Positions 9,918 to 54,814 of a stretch of 64,000 nt of DNA are shown piece by piece. The notes below the pieces were generated by a model. It saw only the letters and a program-made list of their open reading frames with translations, was not told where the DNA came from and made no database searches. The stretch lies in NCBI RefSeq assembly GCF_004346685.1, contig NZ_SMCO01000002.1:120940-184939 (forward strand), written 5' to 3'. Position 1 is the stretch's first letter; each line of letters opens with the position of its first letter. Source of the DNA: Sulfurirhabdus autotrophica (lineage in GTDB: Bacteria; Pseudomonadota; Gammaproteobacteria; Burkholderiales; SMCO01). The position numbers and the translations under genes are program-made.

Positions 9918-10109
9918 GCTCTCATCCTCCCGTATTCACTCAATCCTTGCACTGGCCGAACTAGCGGGCGGCGCAAGAAGCATATATGGATAAATCCTGT
10001 TTCTTTCGGTGCTTGACTACAACTTGCCTCACCCCAAACCAAGGTACTATCACGGTATTCTTTAACCGCTATACCCCTTGATTTGGTTGCGAATGCAATT
10101 TAAAGCTAA

Positions 10110-10442: not shown

Positions 10443-10531
10443 TTCTTTTTCCTTTCATTTTTGGGCGGCGGTGCTCTTCAACCCCTGTCCCGCACCTGTT
10501 TTCGTTTTAGCCTTTTGATTTATCGCTTAAA

Positions 10532-11953
10532 TTAGCGGTTAACCACGTCCAGCTTGTCCACGGTATCGAACTCGAACTTGATCTCTTTCCATGTTTCCAT
10601 AGCGATCTTCAATTCCGGGCTATCCTTGGCTGCATTGGTAAGAATCTCTTTACCTTCACGTTCCAGTTCACGACCTTCGTTACGCGCTTCAACACATGCT
10701 TCCAGCGCAACACGGTTAGCAGCCGCACCTGCAGCGTTACCCCATGGGTGACCTAAAGTACCGCCACCGAATTGCAACACTGAATCATCACCAAAGATGT
10801 TTACCAGTGCCGGCATGTGCCATACGTGAATACCACCAGAAGCGACCGGGAATACACCTGGCATGGAACCCCAATCCTGGTCAAACATAATGCCGCGTGA
10901 ACGGTCTTCAGGAATAAATGACTCGCGCATCAAATCAATCCAGCCCAGCGTTGCTTCACGGTCACCTTCCAATTTACCAACAACGGTACCTGAGTGCAGG
11001 TGATCACCACCGGACAGACGCAGAATCTTGGTCAAGACGCGGAAGTGAATACCGTGGTGCGGGTTACGATCCAGCACGGCATGCATAGCGCGGTGAATGT
11101 GCAACAACATACCGTTCTTGCGACACCAGTTCGCCAGACTGGTATTAGCGGTAAAGCCACCCGTAATGTAATCGTGCATGATAATTGGAGCGCCGATTTC
11201 CTTGGCAAATTCAGCACGTTCAATCATGTCTTCATAAGTTGGCGCCGTTACGTTCAGGTAGTGACCTTTACGCTCGCCAGTTTCTGCCTGAGCAGTCAAC
11301 GTTGCATCCTGCACGAACAGGAAGCGATCACGCCAGCGCATGAATGGCTGACTGTTGATGTTCTCGTCGTCCTTGGTGAAATCCAGACCACCACGCAAAC
11401 ATTCGTATACAGCACGACCGTAGTTTTTAGCAGACAAACCGAGTTTTGGCTTGATGGTACAACCCAACATCGGACGGCCATACTTGTTCATCTTGTCGCG
11501 TTCAACCTGAATACCGTGAGGAGGACCACCGCAGGTCTTCACGTAGTGCAGAGGGAAGCGCACGTCTTCAAGACGCAATGCACGAATTGCTTTAAATCCA
11601 AACACGTTACCCACCAGAGAGGTAAACACGTTAACCACAGAACCTTCTTCAAAAAGGTCGATCGGATAAGCAACAAAGGCATAGAAGCAAGTATCATCGC
11701 CTGGCACGTCTTCAATGCGATAAGCGCGTCCTTTGTAGTAATCCATGTCTGTCAAAAGATCGGTCCAAACTGTGGTCCAGGTACCGGTTGAAGACTCGGC
11801 AGCAACTGCAGCAGCAGCTTCTTCACGGTCTACGCCAGCTTGCGGGGTGATCTTAAAGCAGGCCAGGATGTCCGAATCCAATGGTGCGTACTCTGGCATC
11901 CAGTAGGTCTGTCGATATTCCTTAACACCTGCCTCATACTTTTTTGCGGCCAT
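10532..11953 (-). CDS. cbbL: Rubisco large subunit, form IA.
   Basis: 473 aa with the hallmark [24 protein letters not shown] motif, the active-site lysine region and a C-terminal WKEIKFEF tail. Confidence 0.97.
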
Positions 11954-14408: not shown

Positions 14409-15770
14409 TTAATAATCCCGATCAGACTTAAACAGTCCAGGATCAAGGTCATATCTGTGCAACAGCCTGTAGAACTCAGTACGGTTTCGCTTCGCCATCA
14501 GTGCAGCCTGGCTCACGTTCCCGTCTGTGACTTTCAGCAACTTGGTCAAATATTCCCGCTCAAACTGTTTCCTTGCATCCAGCAGCGAAGGAATCTTACT
14601 AGGCTTATCTCTAAGCGCACGTTGCACTGATGCAGTAGAGATGATCGAAGTGGTACAAAGCGCAACGGTCTGCTCAACCACATTGAGCAACTGCCGCACA
14701 TTTCCTGGCCAGGAAGCGCCAATCAATATTTCCATGGCTTCAGGGGAATAACCTTTAATTTTCTTCCCGTAATTCTCAGCTGTACGAGCCAGAAAATGCG
14801 CAGCCAATAAAGGTATATCTTCACGGCGTTCTGCTAAAGAAGGAATTTCCAGAGACACCACATTCAACCTGTAATATAAATCTTCACGAAAATTCCCTGC
14901 AATCATTTCTTCTTCAAGTTCGCGATGGGTAGCAGAGATAATTCGCACCTCTACCGGGACTGATTGCGAAGAACCAACGGGTCTGACCTGTTTTTCCTGC
15001 AACACACGTAACAATTTCACCTGCAGCGCAATGGGCATATCCCCAATTTCATCCAGCAGAAGTGTGCCGTTGTTGGCAGAGCGAAACAACCCGTTGTAAT
15101 CTTGCGTTGCGCCGGTAAAAGAACCTTTAGTGTGACCAAACAATTCAGATTCAAGCAATGCCTCAGGAATGGCGCCGCAATTCACACCAACAAAGGGTTT
15201 GTGATGGCGCGAACTGGCAAGGTGTATTGCTTTTGCCAACAACTCTTTACCGGTTCCGCTATCGCCGTGTATAAATACGCTGGCATCTGTCGCTGCTACC
15301 AGCTTTGCCTGAGCAAGCATATCCTCCATAACGGGGCTGCGCGTAATCAGCTCTGACCGCCAATCGTTATTTTTTCCGCCGTTATCATCAACCCCATGAC
15401 CGCTAAGGTGTAATGCACGTTCTATTTGTCCAAGCAACACCTTACTATCAAACGGCTTCGTCAAAAAACTGAATACGCCTTGCTTCGTAGCGGCTACAGC
15501 ATCTGGAATAGAGCCATGTGCTGTCAAAATAATCACTGGCAATGTGGCATTATTTTTATGTATCGCCTCAAACAAGGCCATGCCATCCATCCCGCCCATG
15601 CGTAAATCTGTAATGACCAGTTGCGGACGAGCTACAGCCAGGTGTGAAAGCGCCTTTTCGCCGCTTTCTGCCGTTGTCACACCATATCCAGCAGCTTTAA
15701 GTCGAATGGAGAGTAACCGCAGCAAGTCCGTGTCATCATCCACCAGCAGAATTTCACTATAAGCATTCAT
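14409..15770 (-). CDS. Sigma-54-dependent two-component response regulator (NtrC family, QseF/GlrR-like).
   Basis: Receiver domain (LLVDDDTDLLRLL), sigma-54 AAA+ core (GDSGTGKELLAKAIH, GAFTGA-type region) and a C-terminal helix-turn-helix. Confidence 0.85.
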   Translation of the reverse strand: MNAYSEILLVDDDTDLLRLLSIRLKAAGYGVTTAESGEKALSHLAVARPQLVITDLRMGGMDGMALFEAIHKNNATLPVIILTAHGSIPDAVAATKQGVFSFLTKPFDSKVLLGQIERALHLSGHGVDDNGGKNNDWRSELITRSPVMEDMLAQAKLVAATDASVFIHGDSGTGKELLAKAIHLASSRHHKPFVGVNCGAIPEALLESELFGHTKGSFTGATQDYNGLFRSANNGTLLLDEIGDMPIALQVKLLRVLQEKQVRPVGSSQSVPVEVRIISATHRELEEEMIAGNFREDLYYRLNVVSLEIPSLAERREDIPLLAAHFLARTAENYGKKIKGYSPEAMEILIGASWPGNVRQLLNVVEQTVALCTTSIISTASVQRALRDKPSKIPSLLDARKQFEREYLTKLLKVTDGNVSQAALMAKRNRTEFYRLLHRYDLDPGLFKSDRDY

Positions 15771-24399: not shown

Positions 24400-27300
24400 T
24401 TAAGAAGCCGCTCTCGTTGGACGCAAGGGATCAGCCCCAATGGTGCCACGGAGGCTTTGCAGATACGCACCTGTCTTCACTTTTTCAAGCCTGGCTTTGG
24501 CCCGCATCAATCGGTCATGAATCTCCAGCCTGATCACCATATCCTGGTGACTAGGGCGACTGACAAAAGCTTCAAGGTTATGAATATGGCGCTGCCACAA
24601 AGTTACATCCCTAGCCTGCTTTGTCTCCAGGCGCTCCAGATACCAATCCGAGGCCAGCAGTGCTTCACGAGTAAACATGGCGCGAATGGCTGGATCATGC
24701 ACGTCTTTCCCCTCGTAACTGCCGTTTGCCATGATGTGCAGCAGCGCTTTGATAGGCGGGCAGGCATCTTCTATGCTGCCATCTTCCAGATAAGATGCGC
24801 CCACTTTTTGCTGCGCTTCTACAATATTTTCCACTCCATCTACAAAAACAGCCAAATCCTGTGTTTCCGGGCGGAGAATGCTTTCACCGAATACCGACAT
24901 AGGCGCATCAAAAATCTTGCCTAAATATCCATGTACAAAACGTTCTGTGATGCGATAACCCAGACGACTTGCTTGAACTGATCGCCCCTCATACTGGATA
25001 TCTGCCACTTTTTCCATATAGCCGTTTTCAATCAGAAAGTGAGGATCGCGATCCTGAGCAGATAGGCGCGACCATATTTCAGGTACCAGTAAACTGACAT
25101 CATGATCCACACGGAATTTAGATCCAATATAGCCTGCCGCTGTGGAAAAACCCGAATAACCCGTAAGAATAAATGAAACCAGCGCGTTATTCAGATCGAC
25201 AGTCGGCCGGAGTGCATTAAATGGTCCTTTCGTTAGCGCGCCTTCACTCCCTGCGCCTGTGGTGGAGGGCGATTTCCCGGTCAAACTGCAAATAAAATCC
25301 ATGAACAGTTCGGGCAACTCCTGATAATGAATCGGGTTGTACACGGCTAATGGACGAATACCAGGTTCAGCCGGGTTATTACGTCGGCCGACCAGTACTG
25401 CGTTAACAGGTTCAATAACAGCAACTTCCAAAGGTAGTCGCCGACTCAGTCGCGCCCCCACTTCTGCCACATAGCGGCGAACCGGATGCGATAAATCAGG
25501 ACGCAATTGGAGATAACGTGGGTTTTTGCTTGGCTTTCCATCCACTATCCTCGGATGAGCTGATGACACCACATATTCGTCTGACTCTGAAGCTTCACGC
25601 AAGATTGTTCGCATAGGTTCTGTATATTGGCCAAAACCCACAACATCTTCCATTATTTCGGACAGAGCTTCGCCCTTCAGCGGCTCAAAGTTGGCAATAA
25701 AGTTATCACGCTGAGCTATATCCAGTTCAGTCTGGCGATCTAATCCGCGGTGCACTGCTTCGTCAGGCCGCTGGAACAAACGGTACTCGCAATTACTGAC
25801 CAATTTAACACTGGCATCCGCACTTTTTGGGGATACATTCGAAAGCACTTCAGCAGGTACGACAACCGATGCGGTAATGTCGTCTTCTTTCTGCACTTTT
25901 TCTGCCGCAATAAAATCCTGACGCATTTTGAAAACTCGCCATGCGCCATTTTCCTCAAAGCCCATCCGTAAATAAGAGCCCACCAACTTACGTTCACCCA
26001 GTTTGAGTTCATGACCAGGCTGGCCATTTACAAAATCAACAGACAAGCGTTGACGCCAGCTATCACCCCAGTCCGGGCTGTACATGCGCTTGATAATAAA
26101 AACCAGCGCCAGAATGCGATCTGGCACACTTTCCAGCCAGTTGTTAAAAGCGTCTGTATAGGAGGGGGAAGGGGTGAGTACTTTAATAACAGAACCCAAA
26201 CTCCGTTCCGAACTCAGTAATTTACGGCTCGCATCCCTGTCTTCACGTTCAAAACCTGGTTTAAAGCGGTCACCATAGTGACGTTGAAAAATCGCTTCCA
26301 CCTGATCCAGATCTTTATCCAGATCCGCGACAAACAGCGGTCCATATATAACCGCATCATTGAGTGATTTGGAAATCTCTGATTTACCACCTCCGGAAAC
26401 AGTGCAAGGCTTATGACAAAACACGCCTTCTGCATCCGTACCCACCAGACGCCAGGATGGTGCCCCCGGATGTTTCTGCATTTCTATTTTGTAGCCATTT
26501 GGCTGCATGTAAATTTTGCCGGGACGCAGTTTTATTGTTTGCTTAACGCCTGATTTCATCCACGAAATCGTTTGTCCGGCGAGATCCATGCGCAAATCCT
26601 GAGGCACATAAATCACATCCGGAAACTGTTTGTCTACCCCATAGCCCTCGGGCTGCAATGTCATCAACTCGCCATACTGCGCTACCATATCGTCAAAGTC
26701 ATAGCCAGGTGCACGGGTGTGACTATCCACCCCGAATTCCTCACCATGATTTCGCCGAGGGAAGGCCAAAGCGCCTCCCGCGTGTTCTTCTTCAGCCAGG
26801 CCAAATAAATTTGTGGCATAACTGATCTGTGTTTTGACTTCTTTTTTGCAATAGCCGTAATAATTATCTGCCAGCAGGGTCACAATCACGCCTCGCTCAT
26901 CTCTGGCTGTGATCTTGAACGCAGCGCCATCGTTATAACGTTCACTTTCGTCTTTCCAGCACATGCCATCTACCTGTTGGCGTGGCGTTGCTTTATCCCA
27001 TGCTGGCAAGCCCAGTTCTTTCTTGGTAAATCTCGTCAGATGGGGGGCCAGAATCACACACCCGCTGTGACCTGACCAATGGTCTGCATCCAGCCCGGCA
27101 TCATTGGAGGAAAGATAAGGATTACCCCCGTTTCCGAAAATGCTTTCTACAAAATCCAGATTGCTTACCAGGCTGCCTGGCGCAAAAAACCGAATTTCCA
27201 TATTTTTTTCTGATTCACTGCCTGGAATTTCCGGACAAATCACCGGACGCAGCAAGAGTGACACAAACATACTCGCTTCATGGGGTTGCCCGGATGTAAA

Positions 27301-27867
27301 CGGCAATTTCATATAACTCGGTGGTGGTGTTAAGGCCTTCCGCAATAAATTCGCAAACGTTAGCTTAGGAACGGCCTTCTTGTCGCCGGGGATAGGTAAC
27401 CCGCCTTCCGCAACATGGAAAGAACCCTTGGTAGTGCGACGGTCGCTTGCTGGATTATGCAACACCCCATTTCGAATACGGTAGCTACTGACATACTCAC
27501 TGCTGAACACATCTTTATCAATGGGTAGTGAAAGCTCTCTGGATACGCCGTGTCGATCGAGAATCAAAGTATCTTCAGGCAACCGGGGGATATCTCCACC
27601 TGCAACATCAGAGAGATAGCTATTCAGAAAATCCTGAATACGCTGATCCGGCGGACACAGATAGCCGCTCAACAAACGGGATTTTTCGCGATAACTTCTT
27701 AACAGATCTTGTGCAACGGCCATGAAATCGCCATCACTTCCCTGCAAGCAGGCGGGCTGGCCAGAGGATTCAAGTTTCAGATTAATGTAGAGCTGCAGGC
27801 GTTCGCGCGTTTCTTGTACATCTTCCGGGCTTCCATTGAGCCCAAGAAATTGATTCAAATCCTTCAT
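24400..27867 (-). CDS. Large cytoplasmic protein of unknown function, 1155 aa. Speculatively a PPi-dependent phosphoenolpyruvate carboxykinase, based on size class only.
   Basis: Single uninterrupted ORF with a good ribosome-binding site and no transmembrane segment or signal peptide. It contains a GGGKSE P-loop-like segment. The family assignment is not secure. Confidence 0.55.
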   Translation of the reverse strand: MKDLNQFLGLNGSPEDVQETRERLQLYINLKLESSGQPACLQGSDGDFMAVAQDLLRSYREKSRLLSGYLCPPDQRIQDFLNSYLSDVAGGDIPRLPEDTLILDRHGVSRELSLPIDKDVFSSEYVSSYRIRNGVLHNPASDRRTTKGSFHVAEGGLPIPGDKKAVPKLTFANLLRKALTPPPSYMKLPFTSGQPHEASMFVSLLLRPVICPEIPGSESEKNMEIRFFAPGSLVSNLDFVESIFGNGGNPYLSSNDAGLDADHWSGHSGCVILAPHLTRFTKKELGLPAWDKATPRQQVDGMCWKDESERYNDGAAFKITARDERGVIVTLLADNYYGYCKKEVKTQISYATNLFGLAEEEHAGGALAFPRRNHGEEFGVDSHTRAPGYDFDDMVAQYGELMTLQPEGYGVDKQFPDVIYVPQDLRMDLAGQTISWMKSGVKQTIKLRPGKIYMQPNGYKIEMQKHPGAPSWRLVGTDAEGVFCHKPCTVSGGGKSEISKSLNDAVIYGPLFVADLDKDLDQVEAIFQRHYGDRFKPGFEREDRDASRKLLSSERSLGSVIKVLTPSPSYTDAFNNWLESVPDRILALVFIIKRMYSPDWGDSWRQRLSVDFVNGQPGHELKLGERKLVGSYLRMGFEENGAWRVFKMRQDFIAAEKVQKEDDITASVVVPAEVLSNVSPKSADASVKLVSNCEYRLFQRPDEAVHRGLDRQTELDIAQRDNFIANFEPLKGEALSEIMEDVVGFGQYTEPMRTILREASESDEYVVSSAHPRIVDGKPSKNPRYLQLRPDLSHPVRRYVAEVGARLSRRLPLEVAVIEPVNAVLVGRRNNPAEPGIRPLAVYNPIHYQELPELFMDFICSLTGKSPSTTGAGSEGALTKGPFNALRPTVDLNNALVSFILTGYSGFSTAAGYIGSKFRVDHDVSLLVPEIWSRLSAQDRDPHFLIENGYMEKVADIQYEGRSVQASRLGYRITERFVHGYLGKIFDAPMSVFGESILRPETQDLAVFVDGVENIVEAQQKVGASYLEDGSIEDACPPIKALLHIMANGSYEGKDVHDPAIRAMFTREALLASDWYLERLETKQARDVTLWQRHIHNLEAFVSRPSHQDMVIRLEIHDRLMRAKARLEKVKTGAYLQSLRGTIGADPLRPTRAAS

Positions 27868-29616: not shown

Positions 29617-30873
29617 ATGCGATTTACTTTGCGGCTGCTTTTATTTTTCCTGCTTATCCTGCCTTTTGCGTGCGTATTGCTCATTTGGCTTGCACTCTCT
29701 TCGAAACCAGCCGTACCTGAATCAGCCAATTTGTCCCACCTGGACATTGCCCGTGCGGAAGCTATCCTGAGACAAAATAATCCCCGCTATTTAGTGCCGG
29801 GAACCCTGCACAGCATAACGATCAATCAACAAGATCTCAGCCTGGCAGCCAACTACCTGTTACACAGAACGGGTCATGGTGGCGCACGTATCGATATAAC
29901 AGAAAATGCCATGCAGGTAGAAAGCAGCATCAAGTTACCGGCCATCCCCATTCCCACTTACCTGAATGTATGGCTAGCTGTAGAAGAATCAGAAGGGCAA
30001 CCTGAAATTACCAAACTGAAACTGGGCTCTCTCACCGTTCCCACATTTATGGCGAATTTAATTGTTCATGAATTGTTAACCAGCACCAAACAAACAAGAG
30101 AATACCAACTAGCTCACAGTGTTATTCAGCAGTTTAATCTTCAACCCGATAGATTAAACATGACATACCAGTGGCGACCAGATCAGCTGGGGGAACTCAG
30201 CCGGCACTTTATATCTGGCGCCGACTCCACTATCCTGCTTGCCTATCATGCACATTTAATGGCGCTCCAATCAACCGGTACGGCAATGTCCGGCTCCGCC
30301 GCCAACATGATGAAACCCATGTTTAAATTTGCTCAAGCACGCAGCATCATGGGTGACCCCATCGCTGAAAACCGTGCACTACTGCTGGTACTTGGCGCAT
30401 GGGCAAGCGGCCATGGCATGTCTACTCTGGTCCCTACAGAAATTCGCCATCCCTGGCGTTTCTCACTCACGCTTGAGCAGCGCATTGATTTTGCCCAGCA
30501 CTTCCTCACCTCTGCCGCAATTGCTGCAGGCGCAGACATTTCCCTGTCGAATGCAGTCGGCGTGTATAAGGAAGTGTCAGATTCAAAGGGAGGGAGCGGA
30601 TTCAGCTTTACAGACATAGCAGCAGACCGTGCAGGTACCCGTTTCGGTGAACTGGCCACTGCCTCGCCTGAAAATGCCAGGCGTGTTCAAAAACTGTTAT
30701 CCGAAGGCGTACAGGAAAAAGTCATCATCCCTAGAGTCGGCGATTTACCAGAAAGCATGCCTGAAAACGTTTTCAAACAGCGCTTTGGCGATGTAGGATC
30801 GGCCATTTATCTATCGCAAATGGCCGTTATAGAAAAGCGTATTGCCGACTGTAAATTATACAAAGGGAACTGA
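29617..30873 (+). CDS. Hypothetical membrane-anchored or secreted protein, 418 aa.
   Basis: N-terminal hydrophobic segment (LLLFFLLILPFACVLLIWLA). No recognisable catalytic motif. Confidence 0.45.
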   Translation: MRFTLRLLLFFLLILPFACVLLIWLALSSKPAVPESANLSHLDIARAEAILRQNNPRYLVPGTLHSITINQQDLSLAANYLLHRTGHGGARIDITENAMQVESSIKLPAIPIPTYLNVWLAVEESEGQPEITKLKLGSLTVPTFMANLIVHELLTSTKQTREYQLAHSVIQQFNLQPDRLNMTYQWRPDQLGELSRHFISGADSTILLAYHAHLMALQSTGTAMSGSAANMMKPMFKFAQARSIMGDPIAENRALLLVLGAWASGHGMSTLVPTEIRHPWRFSLTLEQRIDFAQHFLTSAAIAAGADISLSNAVGVYKEVSDSKGGSGFSFTDIAADRAGTRFGELATASPENARRVQKLLSEGVQEKVIIPRVGDLPESMPENVFKQRFGDVGSAIYLSQMAVIEKRIADCKLYKGN

Positions 30874-31411: not shown

Positions 31412-32611
31412 CTACACCGCTTTAACGCTACGGTCAGTTAACCGGACCATATCGTTCATCACCCCATCTAACCCACCATAAACGTTAAGTGTGCTGATCC
31501 GGCCTGAGATTTTTTCCAGTATTTCCAGTTCTTTTAAGCGTATCAAAACAGGGTTCCCTTCCATCACCTTCGCGGTGTTATGCAATGATCGCGTTGCCTG
31601 CGTTTCCTCCTGCCGTTTGATCAGGTTTGCTTCTGCCACTTTTTGCGCTTCCACAACCTGAGTCAGAATAGCTTTCATTTCGCCAGGCAAAACAATATCG
31701 CGTGCACCAACCGTCTTAACTTCAATACCATAAGACAATGCTTTTTCAACAACAATCGCCTGCACCTGCTGGTTTAGTGAATTTTTATCTACCAGCAATT
31801 CATCCAGTGTTTGTGTGCTGACTATCGTACGCAAAGCCAGTTGCAGCTCTCGATACAAATAGTCTTTGGCATCAGCCAGTTCTGATTTAACCAGACGGGC
31901 ATCTTTAATCTGCCAGGTTGATGACAGGTTTACGCGTAAACTGACGCGGTCTTTGGTCAAAATTTCTTGCCCGTTAACCTCCATGTTTTGCAAACGACCA
32001 TCCAGCATTGTTACCGCAATTTTGCGGTTAAATTTCCACCAGACATAGGTACCTGCAACCAATGTGCCAACATTTTCGCCATCCACCTCCAGAAACCCGA
32101 CATGCCGCTCAGGTATGCTAGCACTGGTCACTGCTGCTGACGTAGCCAGTTTCAGCAACTCGTCCTTGGCATTGGTGAGTAACGCAGCCAGCTTTTTGGA
32201 TACTGAAAAATCTTCTCTGATATCGATCTTCTCAATACGTATAGCATGCTGGGTCTTCCAGTAAGCACCTTGCTGAGCAGGCGCTTTAATATCTTTCAGC
32301 ACATTATTCTGATAGACCAAACCCACTTCCTGCTCACCGGTTTGCCATGTTTGCAAGTGCGTAGCAAATGCCTCTGCATGAAGCTCGGCCAGATAAATCA
32401 CTTCTTTGCTCACGCCCGCCTGCAAGGTGGTGAGAATATCGGTGACCTGCACCTGATACCGGTTCTGCCAGTCCCACACATAATGTACGCCAGGCACCAA
32501 AACCCTGACGAACTGTTTATCTTTGAATAGCAAGCCTCGCTGAGACTCTGCAATGATGATTTTCTTGTACTCCAACATGAATAATTTCATGGCACTTCTC
32601 CTGATTAACAA
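31412..32611 (-). CDS. SPFH/band-7 (stomatin/flotillin-like) domain protein.
   Basis: 399 aa with an SPFH-like core and a coiled-coil, Ala/Glu/Gln-rich C-terminal region. Confidence 0.7.
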   Translation of the reverse strand: MLIRRSAMKLFMLEYKKIIIAESQRGLLFKDKQFVRVLVPGVHYVWDWQNRYQVQVTDILTTLQAGVSKEVIYLAELHAEAFATHLQTWQTGEQEVGLVYQNNVLKDIKAPAQQGAYWKTQHAIRIEKIDIREDFSVSKKLAALLTNAKDELLKLATSAAVTSASIPERHVGFLEVDGENVGTLVAGTYVWWKFNRKIAVTMLDGRLQNMEVNGQEILTKDRVSLRVNLSSTWQIKDARLVKSELADAKDYLYRELQLALRTIVSTQTLDELLVDKNSLNQQVQAIVVEKALSYGIEVKTVGARDIVLPGEMKAILTQVVEAQKVAEANLIKRQEETQATRSLHNTAKVMEGNPVLIRLKELEILEKISGRISTLNVYGGLDGVMNDMVRLTDRSVKAV

Positions 32612-32847
32612 TCGTTGGCAGTGTCTCCACTCAAGTACTGGCTTGCATCATTGTGACGTGCAGGCAAACTGCTTGTTGCCAATTGCGCGCACGCTAACCC
32701 TGATACAAGGCAGTACCTGAGCTGGCGTTGGAATTCCTGAATCAGGCGTTAAATGTTACTGCTTCACGCTCACTTCATTCCTCCCGCCGCCTGGAGGCTT
32801 ACCTGTGCCCTTGCGGGCTATTTTTTACAGCTACCGTGACAGGGTAG

Positions 32848-32921
32848 TTTCACTAGCCGGAGTCGAACCGGCGACAACTGAATGACTATTTCAGCGCTCT
32901 ACCAAGCTGAGCTATAGCGAT
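32848..32921 (-). ncRNA. tRNA-shaped element 2. Canonical acceptor, D and T arms, but a non-canonical anticodon loop (ATAGTCA, pyrimidine at position 37) and an A1-A72 mismatch. Possible tRNA mimic or pseudo-tRNA.
   Basis: Hand fold of the minus strand: ATCGCTA-TA-GCTC-AGCTTGGTA-GAGC-G-CTGAA-ATAGTCA-TTCAG-TTGTC-GCCGG-TTCGACT-CCGGC-TAGTGAA-A. It shares its first nucleotide with the CCA of element 1. Confidence 0.5.
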
Positions 32922-32994
32922 GGAGCCGCCAGATGGATTCGAACCAACGACACCCGATTTGCATCGGTGCTCTACCAGACTGAGCTATGGCGGC
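32921..32994 (-). tRNA. tRNA-shaped element 1 with an encoded CCA. The anticodon region TGCAAA suggests Cys(GCA) with discriminator U73, but the anticodon arm is 2-3 nt short (6-nt loop, or a 4-nt loop with a CCGAT/ATCGG stem). Possible pseudo-tRNA or tRNA mimic.
   Basis: Minus-strand hand fold: GCCGCCA-TA-GCTC-AGTCTGGTA-GAGC-ACCGATGCAAATCGGG-TGTC-GTTGG-TTCGAAT-CCATC-TGGCGGC-T-CCA. It is 71 nt before the CCA, against about 74 expected. Confidence 0.55.
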
Positions 32995-33102
32995 AATTTT
33001 CAGTACTTGCTTGTTATCGATACGCAGTTCGCCATTGACGGCTGCGTCAGACAGATTTTTGAATCTGCTCCGCTGATAACAGGCCCACACTAAAATTTTT
33101 TA

Positions 33103-34329
33103 TCACCCCTTTACACAAACTACTTGCTTTAAGGTGTGAACAATTTCGACTAAATCCGCCTGTGCAGCCATCACCTGTTCGATGGGTTTGTAAGCAGAGG
33201 GGGTTTCATCTATAACATCTTTGTCTTTACGACATTCCACGCCTTCCGTCGCTTTAATATGTTCAGCCAACGTAACTTGGCGTTTGGCTTCAGTTCTTGA
33301 CATCACGCGCCCCGCACCGTGGCTGCAACTACAGAAACTTTCCTCATTCCCAAGTCCGCGTACGATGAAAGATCGCGCCCCCATGCTGCCCGGAATAATT
33401 CCCATCTCGCCCTTGCGCGCGCTTACGGCCCCCTTACGCGTTACCCAGACATTTTCACCATAATGACTTTCACGACTGATGTAGTTATGGTGGCAATTCA
33501 CCGCTTCAACATCAGCTTCAAATTTCACATTCATGACTTCGCGCATGGCGCTTAATGTGTTCAACATCATCACCTCCCGATTTGCGCGAGCGAAATCCTG
33601 TGCCCATGCAACTGCTTCGATATAGTGGCGAAAATTCTCACTCCCTTCGGGTATGTAAGCCAAATCTTTATCCGGCAAGTGAATGAACCATCGCTCCATA
33701 TCCTTTTTGGCTTGCTCAATAAAGTACGTACCAATACGGTTACCTACTCCGCGTGAACCACTATGCAACATCACCCACACTGCATCTGCTTCATCCAGAC
33801 AAATTTCTACAAAGTGATTCCCTGTACCCAACGTCCCTAAATGATTCAAGTTGTTCGTGTTCTTCAAAAAAGGATGCTTTTCACACAAATGCTCAAACCC
33901 GGCATGTAAGGGCGCCCATGCTTGCAACACTTCTTCTGGCGCTTTACCCCAGCTACCTGTATCACGTACACCACGATGTTGAATCGAGCGTCCATGCGGT
34001 ACTCGCTTCTCAATTTCCGCACGCATTGCACTTAACGAATCTGGCAACTGTGCAGCAGTAAGTGATGTTTTTGCCGCCATCATGCCGCACCCAAGGTCCA
34101 CACCTACGGCCGCCGGAATTACTGCGCCAATTGTCGGTATCACGCTACCAATTGTCGCGCCCTTACCAACGTGCACATCTGGCATGGCAGCGATCCATTT
34201 ATGAATAAATGGCATCTGGGCAATGTTGCGCAGCTGCTGCTTGGCGTTATCGTCAAATTGCACACCTCTTGTCCATGATTTAACTGGATGTTGGCCTTCG
34301 GCACTTAAAACTTCGTATGGTGTATTCAT
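33103..34329 (-). CDS. rtcB: RNA-splicing ligase RtcB.
   Basis: Conserved CHHNY, GSMGARS and SHGAGR motifs. The probable start is the internal Met at 34329 (AAAGGAA ribosome-binding site). The long ORF starts at 34359. Confidence 0.85.
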   Translation of the reverse strand: MNTPYEVLSAEGQHPVKSWTRGVQFDDNAKQQLRNIAQMPFIHKWIAAMPDVHVGKGATIGSVIPTIGAVIPAAVGVDLGCGMMAAKTSLTAAQLPDSLSAMRAEIEKRVPHGRSIQHRGVRDTGSWGKAPEEVLQAWAPLHAGFEHLCEKHPFLKNTNNLNHLGTLGTGNHFVEICLDEADAVWVMLHSGSRGVGNRIGTYFIEQAKKDMERWFIHLPDKDLAYIPEGSENFRHYIEAVAWAQDFARANREVMMLNTLSAMREVMNVKFEADVEAVNCHHNYISRESHYGENVWVTRKGAVSARKGEMGIIPGSMGARSFIVRGLGNEESFCSCSHGAGRVMSRTEAKRQVTLAEHIKATEGVECRKDKDVIDETPSAYKPIEQVMAAQADLVEIVHTLKQVVCVKG

Positions 34330-34371
34330 ATTTATTCCTTTCAACTTATTGTTATTCACAGTTATCAGATA

Positions 34372-34387
34372 GCAATTGCTGTGCCAG
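34372..34387 (-). promoter_or_regulatory. Sigma-54 (-24/-12) promoter driving rtcB. Minus-strand sequence is TGGCAC-AGCAA-TTGCT.
   Basis: Exact match to the consensus TGGCAC-N5-TTGCW, about 12-45 nt upstream of the rtcB start. Divergent from the sigma-54 activator gene rtcR. Confidence 0.7.
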
Positions 34388-34522
34388 AAATAATTAATTT
34401 CAGCATAATATTTTTATCCAATTGTAAATAAACAAATAATTCACACTATTAAACAAATAATAAATTGGCGCGATAAATTTAATATACAATAAATCTATCT
34501 TACAAGATAAGTTGCTATCTAA

Positions 34523-36121
34523 ATGAATACAACGATAATCGGCATTTTGGGTTCCAGGCTAGATCATGGCGGCCTTGGCAGAAACAGAACGAAACGGTGG
34601 CGTCCAAATGTTTCGCTGCTCATGCATGCAGAACTGCCCGTTAATGAGTTTGTGTTGATCCATCACCCGGAAGAGGCTGCACTTGCCGAGATCACCATGC
34701 GCGACATGCGCGAAATATCTCCGCAAACAAGTGTCATCCCTTATCTGGTTAATTACAGTGATCCATGGGATTTTGAGGAGGTATACAGTCAGCTATTGGA
34801 TTTCACACGCAGCTATTCATTTGACCCTGAACAAAGTGATTATTATGTCCATATCACTACGGGAACACATGTAGCCCAAATCTGTTTGTATTTATTGACT
34901 GAGGCAAGATACATACCCGGCAAACTGCTGCAAACTTCCCCAGGCGAAGAAGGGCCAAAGGGGCAATACCAGATCATTGATCTTGATCTTTCGCGATACG
35001 ATCAGATTGCATCACGTTTTGAGCGTGAGGCCATGGATGGCATCACCTATCTGAAAAGCGGAATAGAAACACACAACACAGCATTCAATGCATTAATTTC
35101 ACAACTGGAACATGTATCTATCCGATCCTCCGCGCCCATCCTGCTTACCGGACCAACCGGAGCAGGCAAGTCACGCCTTGCAAAACGCATTTATGATCTG
35201 AAGAAACAGCGTGGGCAAATAAAGGGTAAATTGGTTGAGGTTAACTGTGCCACTTTGCGGGGCGACAATGCAATGTCTGCCCTTTTTGGCCATGTAAAAG
35301 GCGCATTCACCGGTGCGCTTAACACCCGCGCCGGGTTGTTACGGGAAGCAGACAACGGCTTGCTGTTTCTGGATGAAATTGGCGAACTCGGCCTAGACGA
35401 GCAGGCAATGCTGCTCAGGGCAATTGAAGACAAGATTTTTATGCCATTTGGCGCAGATATTGAAGTAAGCAGTAATTTTCAGTTAATCGCAGGAACCAAC
35501 AGAGATTTATTCGAGCAAGTTCGTCTGGGACTTTTTCGCGAAGATCTATTGGCACGTATTAACCTGTGGACTTATGAGCTACCTTCCCTAAGAAACAGAA
35601 TAGAAGATCTGGAACCAAACATAGAACACGAGTTGCACCAATTCACCATTAAAGCCGGACACAAAGTGAATTTTAATAAAGGTGCGCGTGAAAACTATCT
35701 GGAATTTGCTCGCTCACCGCAAGCAATGTGGCGGGCAAATTTCCGCGATCTCAATTCCAGCATTACCCGCATGGCCACTTTGGCAACCGGAGGCAGGATT
35801 ACGGAAGAAATTGTAGAAGGTGAGATTTTGCGCCTACAAAAAGGGTGGTCCGGATTTTCAGATAAGCAACCATTCTCAACTGAAATACTCAGTGAAATTT
35901 TACCATCAGAAACATTAACCGAAATTGATTTGTTTGATCAAATTCAACTGACGCAAGTCATCAATATATGCAGAGAAAGCCGGAGTCTTGCAGAAGCAGG
36001 TCGTAAATTATTTAATCGCAGCCGCACACAAAAATCCAGCATCAATGACTCACATCGGTTAAAGCAATACTTAATACGTTTTGGCCTGGAGTTCCAAGGA
36101 GTAATCACCAGGCAATCCTAA
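34523..36121 (+). CDS. rtcR: RtcR, a sigma-54-dependent activator with an N-terminal CARF-like sensing domain.
   Basis: 532 aa. AAA+ sigma-54 interaction core (GPTGAGKS, GAFTGA) with a non-receiver N-terminal domain. Divergent from rtcB. Confidence 0.8.
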   Translation: MNTTIIGILGSRLDHGGLGRNRTKRWRPNVSLLMHAELPVNEFVLIHHPEEAALAEITMRDMREISPQTSVIPYLVNYSDPWDFEEVYSQLLDFTRSYSFDPEQSDYYVHITTGTHVAQICLYLLTEARYIPGKLLQTSPGEEGPKGQYQIIDLDLSRYDQIASRFEREAMDGITYLKSGIETHNTAFNALISQLEHVSIRSSAPILLTGPTGAGKSRLAKRIYDLKKQRGQIKGKLVEVNCATLRGDNAMSALFGHVKGAFTGALNTRAGLLREADNGLLFLDEIGELGLDEQAMLLRAIEDKIFMPFGADIEVSSNFQLIAGTNRDLFEQVRLGLFREDLLARINLWTYELPSLRNRIEDLEPNIEHELHQFTIKAGHKVNFNKGARENYLEFARSPQAMWRANFRDLNSSITRMATLATGGRITEEIVEGEILRLQKGWSGFSDKQPFSTEILSEILPSETLTEIDLFDQIQLTQVINICRESRSLAEAGRKLFNRSRTQKSSINDSHRLKQYLIRFGLEFQGVITRQS

Positions 36122-39581: not shown

Positions 39582-40982
39582 TTACAAGTGTTTGAAATCA
39601 CGCTTGTCCAGACCGTATTCCTGCATTTTCCTATAGAACGTTTTGTTATCGACTTCGCAGTGTTGTGCACAATGCGCCACATTACCCTTAAATCGACGGA
39701 GACATTCAGACAGATAGGCTTTTTCAAATTCCGCAATGATGCTTTGCCTGCCTTCTTTAAAGGGTAAATTCAACGGCAAGTTGATACCCTGATGAGTGTG
39801 CTCAGGGGGTTGAATTTGAGTAGCAGTCAGTTCCACAGAATTAATCACCTCCCCCACTGTGAGTGCTGATGCACGCTCCATTACATTGGCCAATTCACGT
39901 ACATTGCCCTGCCAGTGATAAGCCAGCATCGCGTTAAGTGCATCGTGGCTGATTCCCGTAAGGTGCCTTCCGGTTTTATCGCAAAAAACTTTAATAAAGT
40001 GCTCTACAAGCAAAGGTACGTCTTCCATGCGTTCACGTAATGGCGGTAATTGCATGCGGACAACATTCAAACGATAATATAAATCAGACCGGAATGTGCC
40101 GTCTGCGACTGCCTGCTCCAAATTTCTGTTGGTTGTTGCAAGTATTCTCACATCAACAGGGATGGTTTCATTTCCACCTACTCGCTGAATCTCTTTTTCC
40201 TGCAATACGCGCAATAATTTCACTTGCATCACATGAGAAATTTCGCCAATTTCATCCAGGAGCAACGTCCCTCCCGTTGCATACTCAAATTTCCCTCTTC
40301 TGGCTTGTATTGCACCGGAAAAGGCACCCCGCTCGTGCCCAAACAGTTCGCTTTCCAGCAGCGTTTCAGTCAGCGCTCCGCAATTAATTCGGACAAAGCG
40401 TTGATCGCGCCTGTTACTGTGAAAATGAATTGCACTGGCAACCAGTTCTTTACCCGTGCCGGTTTCTCCCGTAATGAGAACGGTTGTATCCAGATCAGCC
40501 AGGTTACGTACCATCTCGAAAATTTCCAGCATCTTGGGGCTTTTACTGATAATGCGTTCAAAACGATAAGGGTCTCCTACACGTTCACGCAATGTGCGTA
40601 CTTCTTCAACCAGATCCTGCCGCTCAAGCACCCGTCGTACTACGAGCATCAATTCTTCGGGCGAAAACGGCTTCTGAATATAATCTATAGCCCCTGCTTT
40701 CATTGCATTAACGGCGGAATCTACAGAACCATGCGCTGTTACTATGACCACTGGCAAATCAGGACGCCCTCCATGGATTTGCTGCATCAACTCTACGCCA
40801 GACATGCCAGGCATGAGCTGATCGGTCAACACTAACCGAATACCCCCTTGCTGTACTCGTTGCAATGCAATTGCGCCAGAAGATGCTGTTGCCACACTGT
40901 ATCCATTCGCTTCCAGCACCGATCGAACCAGTTCGCGGTGGGATTCCTGATCATCCACCACCAATATCATCAAATCACTCAT
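39582..40982 (-). CDS. Sigma-54-dependent response regulator (NtrC family).
   Basis: Receiver domain ([14 protein letters not shown]), AAA+ core ([21 protein letters not shown]) and a C-terminal helix-turn-helix. Confidence 0.85.
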
Positions 40983-51075: not shown

Positions 51076-51765
51076 GTAATACCCCGATTAAATTTATAAA
51101 ATGCCAGTTGATTGATCAATTAAACGATGCCAAAAAATTCACAGTTAAAACACATGAACTTTCTAGTCCACCCATACTAAATTGATGACTCATTTGTACT
51201 AGCAAGTAATATGCCATTCGCGCATGACATTTATGTAATATTTAAATCCCAATAAAATCATTGAAATAGTATTTTCCTATCAAATTGAAAAATCCATTAC
51301 AGCTTGATTTCGGGCATGGATTGGATGAACAATCTACCCGAATTTCCTTTTTATGCCCGACATTGCAAGTAATCCATACGTAACTTCGACCCCGATAAAA
51401 ATCCTTTTTTTATTCAAGGCATAACTTCCTCTTGATGCCTGATTAACCAATCCTTTATTCTGTATTAATTAATAAAAAATACTCAATAGGCACCGAATTC
51501 ATCGCCACATCTATTAAATCTGTTGCCCTCAAAATAACGGGCTTAAATACCCGTTATTGATATTTTGCGCCCGCTTTTAATAAATACTTTAAATTCAATA
51601 TACTGCATTCATTTTACATATCATATCGAAGCATTTATGTTGAAATTCAGCATAAATACCATTTGTCATTAAACAAATAATTACCATCGATTTATTATGC
51701 AATATGCTATTTATACGAAATTAATTATGCAGTTATAAGAAAACCTCATCAGAACACATAAAAAT

Positions 51766-51781
51766 GGCACATTATTTGCTT
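51766..51781 (+). promoter_or_regulatory. Sigma-54 promoter TGGCAC-ATTAT-TTGCT upstream of the PQQ-repeat protein gene.
   Basis: Exact consensus -24/-12 element about 80 nt upstream of the ATG at 51863. A sigma-54 activator gene lies immediately downstream of the target gene. Confidence 0.65.
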
Positions 51782-51862: not shown

Positions 51863-54814
51863 ATGAATCAATTGAATTTTCCACGTATCGCTTTATGTTT
51901 TTTCCTATTCACAAATATATCTGCCATCCATTTATCCGCCAATGCACAGGAATTCATTCAATACGGCAGTCCTAACACATACAACAACACTACTGCACGC
52001 GCAGCCTTCCCTCAATCATGGAGTCAATATGGAAATGGTCAGCAGCATAATCCGGTATACACTGTTCCAGGTAACGCCCCTTCGTTCCTGACCACAGGTA
52101 TCTCCACGATTTCCCCCCTTACGGGAGATGAATTCCGACGAATTGATTTAGCTCAGAATTATTTTCCTCAGGATGGCCGTATGGCATGGGGCTCGTCTGC
52201 ATCTCAATGGGTAGGCAATGTCGCTGGTTCGTCTGTCGCACAAGGCATTGTTTTCACCACGACAAGCAGACGTGAAATTTATGCTACTGATGCCCAAAGC
52301 GGATTAGCCATTTGGAGGAAAGAACTTGTTTCCGTTGCCGGCATGGGGCAGCCACTGGTACAAACAATTGGAGGCAAGCTACGCGTAATTGTTACGACCG
52401 GAGATGCTGATTTCAACGCTCAAAACAGCGTTCGCGCCATTGGTGGATTACAACATGATCGCGGAGCGGAGTTCTCTGCAGTGTATTGTCTGGATGCATT
52501 AACCGGTACGCAGATATGGCGCTTTGATACGCAAGGTTCTTCACGCCCTACGCCACTGTATCGCAATGGCTACCTTTATGTAGTGAGTGGAGATGGACAT
52601 TTATACGTATTGGATGCAACCAATGGTTCGCTGATATCGACTTTTACTAACCCGGGTGAGGGCCAGGTAGGGCTATCCAGTCCAAACTGGTTTTTGACTG
52701 CTCAAGGTCATGTCCTCATTTACTATGGAACCCTTAGTCCACGTAATATTGTCGCTGTAGATGTCACTTCTCCTGCAGCTCCTGTTCTTGCCTGGACTTA
52801 CGCACCCCCTGGAGCAGCATCAAATGCTCCTGGCGATGTATCTGTAGCAGTCGATCAAAGTTCTGCCTTGCTTGTAACCAGTGTATTCACCAACGTAGGT
52901 ACAACTTCATCCCCAATTTACGATGAACAAATCATTGCACTTGATGCAAATACGGGCCAGGCAATATGGAATGTGTACAGCGGCCAGGGGCCTACTCTGG
53001 ATGGGTTCAAATCCGCCAATCCAATGATAAACAACGGAGTTGTTTATCTGGGTAACCCTTTAAATGCAACTGTACAGGCTTACGATTTGCGTACCGGAAG
53101 TTTTCGCTGGTCAACCGCTATTCCATCCAATGATCCTGCGATACGCAACGCACCACGCGCAGCACCAGTACTGGTGAATGGAAAATTGATAATACCAGTC
53201 GCACAACATATTTATACTTTTGATGCCATGTCCGGTGCATTGCTTAACGACTACTATTCACCACAATCCTACATTGCCTTCGGATTAAATCAGCCGGTAG
53301 TGGTTGGCAACGTCATGTATATTTCCTCTACATCAGGGTACGTATACACCTTTCCTGTTAGCTACATCACCACGCAAGCAGGCCCGGGACCTGTCACTGT
53401 CCCGGCACTACCTTTAAAAACAGCCGAATATTATGACTCTACCGCAAAGCCGAGCAGTTCCCAGAAAACCGGCTTTCCTGCACAGTGGTTATCCTATGCT
53501 GGCGGACAAAATCACAATAGTTATCTGTCTACAGGACCTGCCATCAGCAAAAAATGGGCATCATCCATGCTTTCAGCAATTTCACTAAGCTCAACACCGC
53601 TTGATGATGCCATTTTCGGGACTGAGATTGCTACACAGATGACCCACTTATCTTTTGGCGCAGGTACTGGTGTAGCTGCAGCCAACGGCATAGCCTATGC
53701 CACAGGCAACAATCGGACTGTTAACGCCTATAACGCCACAACAGGCAAGCTGATCTGGCGATTCCGAACCAACAATCACAATTTTGGTCAGCCTGTCGTC
53801 ACACCCAATGCCGTGCTAGTCATGGGTGGCAATATAGCAACGAGTTTATCGAACAACATCAGCTTTTCCAAACAATCAGCCCAAACCCGCTTAGGAACGG
53901 GATTCATGTATATACACGCACTTGATCCGCTTAATGGAAACGAGAAGTGGACTTTTTATGCCGGGCAGGGCGCCATGTCATCAACTCCGCTCTACTCTAA
54001 TGGCGTACTGTACTGGGTAGATGGCCAAAGCAAGGTATGGGCTATCAATGCGGACACCGGCACCCCTGTTGCGCCATTCATGGATTCGAATGGCAATCCG
54101 CTGCTAACACTAGGCGGTGGGTTCAATGCTGTTTCTTCTGCTAACGTATATCAGGATCCGAGCGGTAAAAAGCTGATGGTTGTAGGGATGAGCATGCCTA
54201 ATCAAATGGTAGCAGTAGATCTTGGCACGGCCACCATTGCCTGGACACAACCACTAACGGGTTTAGCAACACATTTCACTGGATTATCGTCCGCTTCGCC
54301 TGCCATAGATCAAGCCAATGGCCTTGTGATCAGCACCGCCATGGCAAATGTAGATTCTACGACGAATACAGCCCAAGTATTAACATTTGGATTGAATGCC
54401 TCAACAGGAACGATAGTATGGACACAACTTCTTGATGCCGGCCCAATTCCAGCCGGATTTGTGGCACCTACTCCGATGGTTGCAAATAACCGCGTTTATC
54501 TGACCAACCCGACCGCAAATCAAATCACTGCACTAGATGCCACTACCGGGTCAACTTTATGGAAGACAGCTGTTACCGCAACAGGAGGCAAGTATTCCTG
54601 GGCACCCGGAACACTTGTAGGTAGTACTAAACTGATCATGCCAATGGGGGGGAACTTATATACGCTTAACCCTGACTCCGGTGCCTTACTCAAAACTTAC
54701 GTCATAGGCGGCGCACACACTTATAACCATGTATTAGTCATAGGCAATAGCGTATACCTTGGAAATGCCTATGGCTGGGTATTGGGTATTCCACTGGCGG
54801 ATGTAGCGGGTTAA
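51863..54814 (+). CDS. Large secreted PQQ-repeat (BamB-like) multi-beta-propeller protein, 983 aa.
   Basis: Signal peptide. Recurring T/SG-x-x-x-W motifs (TGTQIWRF, TGQAIWNVY, TGKLIWRFRT, TGTIVWTQLL, TGSTLWKTAV) typical of PQQ-like propeller blades. Confidence 0.7.
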   Translation: MNQLNFPRIALCFFLFTNISAIHLSANAQEFIQYGSPNTYNNTTARAAFPQSWSQYGNGQQHNPVYTVPGNAPSFLTTGISTISPLTGDEFRRIDLAQNYFPQDGRMAWGSSASQWVGNVAGSSVAQGIVFTTTSRREIYATDAQSGLAIWRKELVSVAGMGQPLVQTIGGKLRVIVTTGDADFNAQNSVRAIGGLQHDRGAEFSAVYCLDALTGTQIWRFDTQGSSRPTPLYRNGYLYVVSGDGHLYVLDATNGSLISTFTNPGEGQVGLSSPNWFLTAQGHVLIYYGTLSPRNIVAVDVTSPAAPVLAWTYAPPGAASNAPGDVSVAVDQSSALLVTSVFTNVGTTSSPIYDEQIIALDANTGQAIWNVYSGQGPTLDGFKSANPMINNGVVYLGNPLNATVQAYDLRTGSFRWSTAIPSNDPAIRNAPRAAPVLVNGKLIIPVAQHIYTFDAMSGALLNDYYSPQSYIAFGLNQPVVVGNVMYISSTSGYVYTFPVSYITTQAGPGPVTVPALPLKTAEYYDSTAKPSSSQKTGFPAQWLSYAGGQNHNSYLSTGPAISKKWASSMLSAISLSSTPLDDAIFGTEIATQMTHLSFGAGTGVAAANGIAYATGNNRTVNAYNATTGKLIWRFRTNNHNFGQPVVTPNAVLVMGGNIATSLSNNISFSKQSAQTRLGTGFMYIHALDPLNGNEKWTFYAGQGAMSSTPLYSNGVLYWVDGQSKVWAINADTGTPVAPFMDSNGNPLLTLGGGFNAVSSANVYQDPSGKKLMVVGMSMPNQMVAVDLGTATIAWTQPLTGLATHFTGLSSASPAIDQANGLVISTAMANVDSTTNTAQVLTFGLNASTGTIVWTQLLDAGPIPAGFVAPTPMVANNRVYLTNPTANQITALDATTGSTLWKTAVTATGGKYSWAPGTLVGSTKLIMPMGGNLYTLNPDSGALLKTYVIGGAHTYNHVLVIGNSVYLGNAYGWVLGIPLADVAG

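Follow-up and report, generated by a model that had tools for sequence, protein, structure and literature searches.

A structured RNA with two tRNA-like elements between rtcB and a Band-7 gene in Sulfurirhabdus autotrophica

The window analysed here, a stretch of 64,000 nt from Sulfurirhabdus autotrophica (contig NZ_SMCO01000002.1, positions 120,940 to 184,939), contains an RNA-repair locus in which rtcR is divergent from rtcB and in which rtcB is followed, on its own strand, by two tRNA-like elements and by a gene encoding an SPFH/Band-7 protein. An initial annotation, made from the sequence alone, had described the divergent rtcR gene with its CARF and sigma-54 AAA+ domains, a perfect sigma-54 promoter, rtcB and, about 108 bp downstream on the same strand, two tRNA-sized elements, and had remarked on the absence of rtcA and Rsr. 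This description proved accurate, as detailed below. It had overlooked the Band-7 gene that comes next, as well as the structured nature of the sequences on either side of the tRNA-like pair, which form covarying, conserved domains. The whole spacer from rtcB to the Band-7 gene is a structured RNA of about 510 nt made of four modules, cloverleaves 1 and 2 being preceded by a 5′ three-way junction and followed by a 3′ multi-helix domain.

The rtcB locus and its Band-7 protein

The features of the locus, in window coordinates, are the following:

34523-36121, plus strand: rtcR, CARF plus sigma-54 AAA+ activator, divergent from the operon (Pfam RtcR 246 bits, Sigma54_activat 151 bits)
34386-34371, minus strand: sigma-54 promoter TGGCACagcaaTTGCT, zero mismatches to the consensus TGGCAC-N5-TTGCW
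34329-33103, minus strand: rtcB RNA ligase, 408 aa from the ATG at 34329 (Pfam RtcB 436 bits, full profile)
33101-32995, minus strand: 5′ structured domain, a three-way junction, GCGG..CAGGUUC..CUGACRC..GYGUAUCG (RNAalifold, model R1)
32994-32921, minus strand: tRNA-like element 1, full cloverleaf ending ...GGCGGC-U-CCA (Rfam tRNA 52.3 bits, E 2e-8)
32921-32848, minus strand: tRNA-like element 2, cloverleaf (Rfam tRNA 47.6 bits; ARAGORN Thr(AGU))
32847-32831, minus strand: hairpin H0, CUACC-CUGUCAC-GGUAG, directly 3′ of element 2 (covariation, de novo folding)
32818-32807, minus strand: hairpin H1, GCCC-GCAA-GGGC, with a GNRA tetraloop, 3′ of an A-rich linker (kept, with CG-to-UA changes)
32796-32614, minus strand: 3′ structured domain, with a long irregular hairpin at 32724-32614, an insert that varies between lineages and a tentative closing stem (RNAalifold, model R2)
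32590-31412, minus strand: SPFH/Band-7 ('slipin') protein, 392 aa (Pfam Band_7 94.8 bits, residues 158-329)

The rtcR product matches the NCBIfam equivalog RNA_repair_RtcR with 773 bits (cut-off 650) and the PADLOC RtcR model with 812 bits; PADLOC reported RtcR models only, and no defence-system model for Band-7 or RtcB at this locus. The sigma-54 promoter TGGCACagcaaTTGCT lies about 40 nt 5′ of the rtcB start, and the stop of rtcB is separated from element 1 by exactly 108 nt (33102-32995). A tblastn search with E. coli RtcA returned no match at E<=1e-6 in the whole window, and the same query found rtcA in one of the 80 related loci introduced below. Likewise, none of the 22 open reading frames (ORFs) of at least 380 aa in the window encodes a TROVE/Ro60 (Rsr) domain.

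The Band-7 gene comes next on the strand of rtcB, 255 nt 3′ of element 2, and is preceded by a Shine-Dalgarno sequence, AGGAG, at 32602-32598. NCBIfam has no specific family for its product, in which no transmembrane segment was found (maximum 19-aa hydropathy 0.94). The AlphaFold2 model (pLDDT 79.5) consists of a beta-rich N-terminal region of about 150 aa, the SPFH domain and a long C-terminal helix. Foldseek matched this model to stomatin, HflK/C, prohibitin, erlin and flotillin, which are cage- or ring-forming SPFH proteins (E 1e-14 to 1e-9), and also to the major vault protein, whose alignments were the longest (469-489 columns), with E about 2e-11 and 11-12% identity. Having no membrane anchor, the protein is expected to be soluble, and its modelled fold predicts a cage or a ring.

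The tRNA-like elements and their flanking domains

To collect related loci, a single genome of each species was searched with the Band-7 protein as query, which gave 80 loci (54-97% identity) from Sulfurirhabdus, Gallionella, Methylococcales, Cellvibrio, the Thiothrix group, Leucothrix and Methylophilaceae; the top match, at 97%, came from a Sulfurirhabdus metagenome-assembled genome. We called tRNA-shaped elements with ARAGORN and the Rfam tRNA model (gathering score 29), and tested structures for compensatory changes against shuffled and slid controls. The tRNA-like pair was tested on a MAFFT alignment of 39 pairs. Alignments made with the covariance models favour the modelled structure, a bias from which the MAFFT-based results (the double cloverleaf and the RNAalifold predictions) are free. 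Two covariance models were built for the flanks, R1 for the 5′ domain and R2 for the long hairpin of the 3′ domain.

Elements 1 and 2 are the sole ARAGORN and Rfam tRNA matches in the 64 kb. They abut, element 2 overlapping the last base of the element 1 CCA by one base. Element 1 carries a 4-nt GCAA loop in place of an anticodon loop, hence its ARAGORN label 'tRNA-???', and in element 2 the loop, AUAGUCA, has 7 nt with the triplet 'AGU' and a C at position 37; its first and last acceptor bases are mismatched (A1*A72), and CCA is lacking. The same asymmetry runs through the 39 homologues. The element 1 loop ranges from 3 to 9 nt, with 3-6 nt in 35 copies and 7 nt in only two, and element 1 is followed by NCCA in 20 of the 39 copies and by NCC in 29. 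The element 2 loop has 7 nt in 34 copies, 29 of which keep U33, and element 2 lacks CCA in 37 of the 39. The triplet borne by the 34 seven-nt loops takes 13 values, including AUU, AGU, ACG, AAG and UUA (a stop), and differs even among near-identical Methylobacter copies (GUU, AUU, CUU, UGU). Over the 80 loci, the ARAGORN labels accordingly include Asn-AUU, Phe-AAA, Ser-AGA, Cys-ACA, 'stop'-UUA and many '???'.

The cloverleaf itself is well supported. The D-loop GG and the T-loop UUCRA are invariant or nearly so in the 39 homologues, as in canonical tRNAs. When the double cloverleaf with its 3′ hairpin was drawn by hand on the MAFFT alignment, 95.3% of the cells were paired and 33 of the 46 pairs showed compensatory changes, giving a covariation of 0.462 against 0.177 for shuffled alignments (0/500 reached 0.462) and 0.03-0.11 for slid ones. 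All four stems of element 1 covary, and the stems of element 2 do so too. The other hallmarks of a canonical tRNA are lacking: neither element 1, whose loop has 4 nt, nor element 2, with its C37, has an anticodon loop of 7 nt that combines U33 with a purine at position 37, and there is no conserved anticodon belonging to the decoding set of the organism, the 13 triplets changing between close relatives. Elements 1 and 2 are two independent, non-decoding cloverleaves. Since both exceed the Rfam tRNA threshold, annotation pipelines can enter them as tRNA genes whose anticodon is odd or undetermined.

The number of tRNA-like units is not the same everywhere. Three Methylophilaceae loci show an extra 78-nt 'tRNA-Pro(UGG)' call between the sigma-54 promoter and the rtcB start, within the rtcB leader (L059:2822-2899, L069:2980-3057 and L072:3029-3106), as well as a third T-arm remnant 3′ of element 2, and another locus, L074, has three abutting tRNA-like elements.

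The 5′ domain occupies the 108-nt spacer between rtcB and element 1. RNAalifold on 29 sequences predicted 22 pairs, 15 of them with compensatory changes; 93.3% of the cells are paired, and the covariation reaches 0.555, where shuffled controls give 0.189 and slid ones no more than 0.08. Model R1 has a single copy in the window (32990-33101, 89.9 bits) and was found in 75 of the 80 loci, always adjoining element 1. Hairpin A of this domain (window 33069-33052; consensus GCAGG-UUCAAAA-CCUGC) is T-arm-like and fits a T-loop regular expression. The 5′ domain may be a degenerate third tRNA-like unit, judging from this resemblance in sequence.

On the other side of the pair, hairpin H0 shows compensatory changes at all five of its pairs (5/5), with 92.8% of the cells paired. 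For the 3′ domain, RNAalifold predicted 26 pairs, of which 23 have compensatory changes, and in its long hairpin 89.6% of the cells are paired, with a covariation of 0.785 against 0.218 (shuffled) and at most 0.12 (slid). Model R2 likewise matches the window once (32614-32724, 87.6 bits) and was detected in 75 of the 80 loci, ending 10-30 nt 5′ of the Band-7 start. A tentative closing stem would pair CCUCC(A) at 32796-32792 with UGGAG at 32629-32625; it has little covariation support, and covariation cannot confirm it because CCUCC/GGAG is near-invariant. The 5′ strand of this stem, (A/G)CCUCC (32796-32792), resembles the anti-Shine-Dalgarno end of 16S rRNA, and its partner GUGGAGG (32629-32625) is Shine-Dalgarno-like and lies about 35 nt 5′ of the real ribosome-binding site.

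Every module was recovered by unguided RNAalifold on 20 full-length spacers (103 pairs, 71 with compensatory changes), which predicted no pairing between the 5′ and 3′ domains. The 512-nt spacer of the window folds with z = -4.06. The two flanks matched none of the 4,227 families of Rfam 15, either in the window (E<=10) or in 13 other loci (gathering scores).

Genomic linkage and promoters

The initial annotation had proposed to look for a conserved linkage between rtcB and the tRNA-like elements. On the strand of the Band-7 gene, tRNA-like calls were obtained in 78 of the 80 loci, mostly about 250-430 nt upstream; they form abutting pairs in 46 loci, and two T-loop motifs about 75 nt apart are seen in about 69. 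The presence of rtcB was counted in the 63 loci with at least 3.5 kb of upstream sequence: the gene is found in 53 of them, directly adjoining as in the window in 34, and is missing from the remaining 10. rtcR is found in 47 of the 80 loci. We also searched from the RNA side, scanning metagenomes for CTGACRC..GYGTATC..TAGCTCA and checking the candidates with the covariance model, which confirmed 20 loci. A Band-7 gene lies downstream in all of the confirmed loci with usable flank, including Band-7 proteins of only 35-49% identity. As the searches from the RNA side and from the Band-7 side agree, and as rtcB is missing in some loci, the fixed partner of the RNA is Band-7. The linkage of the module is thus conserved, but its invariant pair is the RNA and Band-7, rtcB being a frequent and not an obligatory partner.

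Other searches with the spacer gave little. The tRNA-like region (window 32780-33110) had no blastn match in 5,426 E. coli genomes, the whole spacer (32591-33102) matched plasmids only once, over 75 nt of tRNA-like sequence, and the 14 matches of the RNA-motif pattern in the viral contigs of IMG/VR were all rejected by both covariance models.

The repair genes that accompany the pair vary. In Candidatus Thiothrix singaporensis (L060; CP059265.1, 4478-10859), a sigma-54 promoter is followed by two tRNA-like elements, Band-7, Hen1, Pnkp and KptA/Tpt1, so that the RNA/Band-7 module is coupled there to the Pnkp/Hen1 repair system and not to RtcB. KptA is encoded in eight loci; in five of them, which are of Thiothrix type, it stands close behind Band-7. 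In Burkholderia cenocepacia (L218) and Photobacterium sp. GJ3 (L219), rtcR is followed divergently by a sigma-54 promoter, the RNA, Band-7 and rtcB. The Firmicute Subdoligranulum variabile (L220) has Band-7 (31%) then RtcB (31%), and the RNA 5′ of its Band-7 gene carries a GCGG..GCGUAUGCC motif and two T-arm-like hairpins; because of this similar motif and these hairpins, the composite RNA may span phyla.

Genes are inserted between rtcB and the RNA in a few loci, encoding a HEPN-domain protein (L012:3448-4350), a DUF4145 protein and a Fic protein (L036:2058-3937) or an Exo_endo_phos nuclease/phosphatase (L039:1849-2580). Such inserts are typical of toxin or conflict systems.

Two enterobacterial loci, in E. 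coli STEC639 (L217; CP061233.1, 4680-6919) and Citrobacter freundii (L216; NZ_CP151862.1), have a sigma-54 promoter close to the consensus and, in a leader of about 300 nt, only one T-arm-like hairpin (GGGUUCGAUUCCCAC), followed by a slipin protein (40% identical) and a nucleotidyltransferase; the Citrobacter locus has a divergent rtcR as well. Since neither ARAGORN nor model R1 nor Rfam found a match in these leaders, they may contain a different RNA or a degenerate relative of the one described here.

In the window, scanning the minus strand from rtcB to Band-7 for promoters and terminators gave no terminator and no sigma-70-like promoter. Where rtcB adjoins the RNA, the sigma-54 motif is located 5′ of rtcB. 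Where rtcB is distant or absent, a sigma-54 motif stands directly 5′ of the RNA in 18 of 29 loci (those with at least 3.5 kb upstream), about 100-250 nt and most often 115-130 nt 5′ of element 1; these loci include L008, L039, L047, L048, L054, L057, L060, L067, L068, L071 and L077, and the motif occupies the same place on three shorter contigs (L045, L050, L065). In L039, an identical 16-mer sigma-54 site precedes both rtcB and the RNA. From this distribution of motifs, the RNA/Band-7 unit appears to be under RtcR-type sigma-54 control in this clade, either through rtcB or through a site of its own.

Two further exact TGGCAC-N5-TTGCW sites occur in the window, one inside the Band-7 ORF (32054-32069, minus strand) and one at 51765-51780 (plus strand), about 85 nt 5′ of the gene for a 983-aa PQQ-repeat protein (51863-54814), and three other sigma-54 activators are encoded at 14409-15770, 39582-40982 and 55507-56943.

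Relation to known systems and rival explanations

The initial annotation had suggested that the locus would be a variant arrangement of the operons that encode Rsr and Y RNAs. The analogy is apt, the locus being an RtcR/sigma-54 operon with a tRNA-like RNA in which Band-7 stands in for Rsr, but the arrangement is not new. It matches the RtcB/Band-7/'b7a-tRNA' system, a comparative-genomics prediction of Burroughs and Aravind (2016) as summarised in the Discussion of Wang et al. (bioRxiv 10.1101/312249). With respect to that summary, the locus has the Band-7 gene (Pfam 94.8 bits, fold like SPFH cage proteins), a predicted non-coding RNA resembling tRNA beside it (52.3 and 47.6 bits, 255 nt upstream on the same strand) and an adjacent RNA ligase, which in that system is RtcB or occasionally a ligase of another family (here rtcB, 108 nt upstream of the RNA; Pnkp/Hen1 instead in L060), with Band-7 in place of Rsr, and none of its features contradicts membership. 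The locus is thus very probably a member of this system, with a co-regulated, non-decoding RNA. In the literature searched, the term 'b7a-tRNA' occurs only in bioRxiv 10.1101/312249 and in no later paper; a 2026 paper places the SPFH gene PaFlo8 within the Pseudomonas aeruginosa rtc locus and mentions no RNA. Set against the account of the system given in that Discussion, three features may be new: the dimeric nature of the RNA, with its two halves under different constraints; the two flanking structured domains, absent from Rfam; and the sigma-54 promoter that the RNA/Band-7 unit has of its own in most loci without adjacent rtcB.

Comparison with better-known loci helps to place these features. 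Like the Salmonella rsr-yrlBA-rtcBA operon, the locus combines RtcR/sigma-54 control, RtcB, a non-coding RNA mimicking tRNA and an RNA-associated protein forming a ring or cage, the latter property being predicted here. It differs in that the protein belongs to the SPFH type and not to the TROVE type (Ro60 orthologue), in the lack of rtcA, and in the RNA, YrlA having one permuted module of T-arm, acceptor and D-arm whereas two complete cloverleaves are found here. With E. coli rtcBA-rtcR it shares the divergent rtcR, the sigma-54 promoter and rtcB, but rtcA is absent from the 64 kb and a structured RNA and Band-7 follow rtcB instead. The eukaryotic vault also pairs a cage-forming protein having an SPFH-type (shoulder) domain with a small structured RNA; this likeness is at fold level only, with 11-12% identity, the cage being predicted here and the RNA binding proposed. 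The locus represents the least studied branch of RtcB operons, the one where Rsr and the Y RNA have given way to an SPFH protein and tRNA mimics. For this branch, the present analysis provides the boundaries of the elements, structures backed by covariation, two covariance models for the flanks and the sigma-54/RtcR-type control proposed for RNA/Band-7. Cultivable carriers include Burkholderia cenocepacia, Photobacterium sp. GJ3, Methylomicrobium lacus, Cellvibrio fibrivorans, Thiolinea disciformis and Simiduia litorea.

Taken as a whole, the explanation that we favour has a probability of about 0.6. It identifies the two elements with 'b7a-tRNA', the tRNA-like module of RtcB/Band-7 RNA-repair operons, present here as a dimer. 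By analogy with the Ro60-Y RNA and vault particles, we suggest tentatively, and at somewhat less than even odds, that the RNA is a ribonucleoprotein cofactor of Band-7 assisting RNA repair. Under such a scheme, RNA damage would cause RtcR to fire the sigma-54 promoter, giving a single transcript with rtcB, the RNA and Band-7. RNase P would cut at the 5′ end of element 2 and so release element 1 with its encoded NCCA end, and element 2, which has no CCA, would remain joined to the 3′ domain. The RNA would then bind the soluble oligomeric Band-7 protein (a predicted cage or ring) to form a ribonucleoprotein like Ro60-Y RNA or vault-vault RNA, in which the tRNA-shaped parts would gather tRNA-handling enzymes (RtcB; elsewhere Pnkp/Hen1/KptA), broken tRNAs or both; alternatively, these parts might occupy anticodon nucleases, or the assembly might shield ligases and broken tRNA-type substrates from nucleases. 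A more far-reaching conjecture, which we consider somewhat unlikely, is that b7a-tRNA is the core of a larger, uncatalogued RNA of about 400-510 nt that builds a vault- or Ro-like particle with the SPFH protein, is switched by RtcR, serves either RtcB or Pnkp/Hen1, and has the 'anticodon' of its element 2 tuned to the anticodon nucleases of each lineage.

Several points weigh against the favoured explanation. As of 2018, b7a-tRNA was without experimental validation according to the Discussion of bioRxiv 10.1101/312249. Divergent lineages possess the RNA-Band-7 pair alone among housekeeping genes, with no repair gene nearby, and in one such stand-alone locus (L143) the promoter is of sigma-70 type; given this arrangement in divergent lineages, the link of the pair to repair may not be universal. 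In the window, we infer the co-transcription of rtcB with the RNA only from the promoter and terminator scans. Finally, as the 3′ domain ends just 5′ of the Band-7 ribosome-binding site, the anatomy is equally compatible with a purely cis-acting leader.

Such a leader would make the RNA the 5′ untranslated region of Band-7, the elements serving as RNase P/RNase Z punctuation and the flanks setting the stability or translation of the Band-7 message, with no free RNA cofactor. It would account for the position of the RNA, always on the Band-7 strand and immediately upstream, and for the 3′ domain always ending 10-30 nt 5′ of the Band-7 start so that the ribosome-binding site is left free; in loci without rtcB, the transcript would moreover begin at the 5′ domain. 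We nevertheless regard it as unlikely: a covarying structure that extends over about 400 nt, and whose near-invariant T and D loops make the tertiary folding of tRNA possible, goes far beyond what processing signals need, the two cloverleaves are kept across Beta- and Gammaproteobacteria, and in the parallel Rsr-YrlA system the tRNA-like RNA is used in trans. We give still less credit to a decoy or sensor function, in which the elements, and chiefly element 2, would bait anticodon nucleases, either soaking up the toxin or yielding 2′,3′-cyclic-phosphate fragments that bind the CARF domain of RtcR and amplify induction. This idea, which we judge quite unlikely, draws on the retention of U33 in element 2 (29/34) while the triplet shifts fast among near-identical copies, as under diversifying selection, and on the HEPN and Fic genes inserted in some operons; tRNA fragments are also the proposed signal of RtcR, and competitive inhibition of a nuclease has been proposed for YrlA's tRNA-like domain. 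A lack of constraint explains the rapid change of the triplet equally well, however, and the loop of element 1 (3-6 nt in 35/39) is too short to mimic an anticodon loop. In addition, the RNA sits 3′ of the inducible promoter and therefore cannot be the primary sensor, and the flanking domains and Band-7 would be left unexplained.

The two remaining readings concern the nature of the elements. The initial annotation had allowed that they might simply be tRNA genes flanking rtcB, and both do score above the Rfam gathering threshold (52.3 and 47.6 against 29) while element 1 encodes a CCA. That they are ordinary or spare tRNA genes is highly improbable given the 4-nt loop of element 1, the AGU triplet, C37, A1*A72 mismatch and missing CCA of element 2, a triplet that is not kept among orthologous copies, some of which carry a 'stop' or an unused anticodon, the absence of an own promoter in the window scan and the fixed linkage to Band-7; we consider this reading refuted by the loop and conservation data. 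The initial annotation had named in advance the outcome that would speak against a special role, namely ordinary tRNAs with independent promoters and no conserved linkage, and this outcome did not occur. It had also suggested a check with Y RNA/YrlA covariance models, which bears on the possibility of a YrlA-type Y RNA working without Rsr, its permuted tRNA-like domain lying across the junction of the two elements. Rfam YrlA (RF02553) does match 32890-32956 (33.6 bits, E 2.4e-5), but this score falls short of the gathering score (69), the match covers just positions 23-87 of the 114 in the model, and it spans the element junction, dimeric tRNAs being a false positive of this model of which the authors of YrlA had warned. 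The junction hairpin that such a fold requires, between the 3′ acceptor strand of element 1 and the 5′ acceptor strand of element 2, is 66.7% paired and has a covariation of 0.142, the shuffled value being 0.171; both true acceptor stems, by contrast, do covary. With no TROVE domain in the window ORFs searched either, a YrlA-type RNA is hardly credible, and we rejected this fold for its sub-threshold score and for a junction hairpin whose covariation does not rise above that of the shuffles.

Elsewhere in the window, three large ORFs have no Pfam match (24400-27867, minus strand, 1155 aa; 29617-30873, plus strand, 418 aa; 57442-58980, plus strand, 512 aa). A carboxysome/RuBisCO cluster at 5925-11953 encodes CsoSCA, CsoS2 and the RuBisCO large chain, and Sox-type cytochromes with a SoxB-like protein are encoded at 45.6-51 kb; the carboxysome and Sox genes fit a sulfur-oxidising autotroph such as Sulfurirhabdus.

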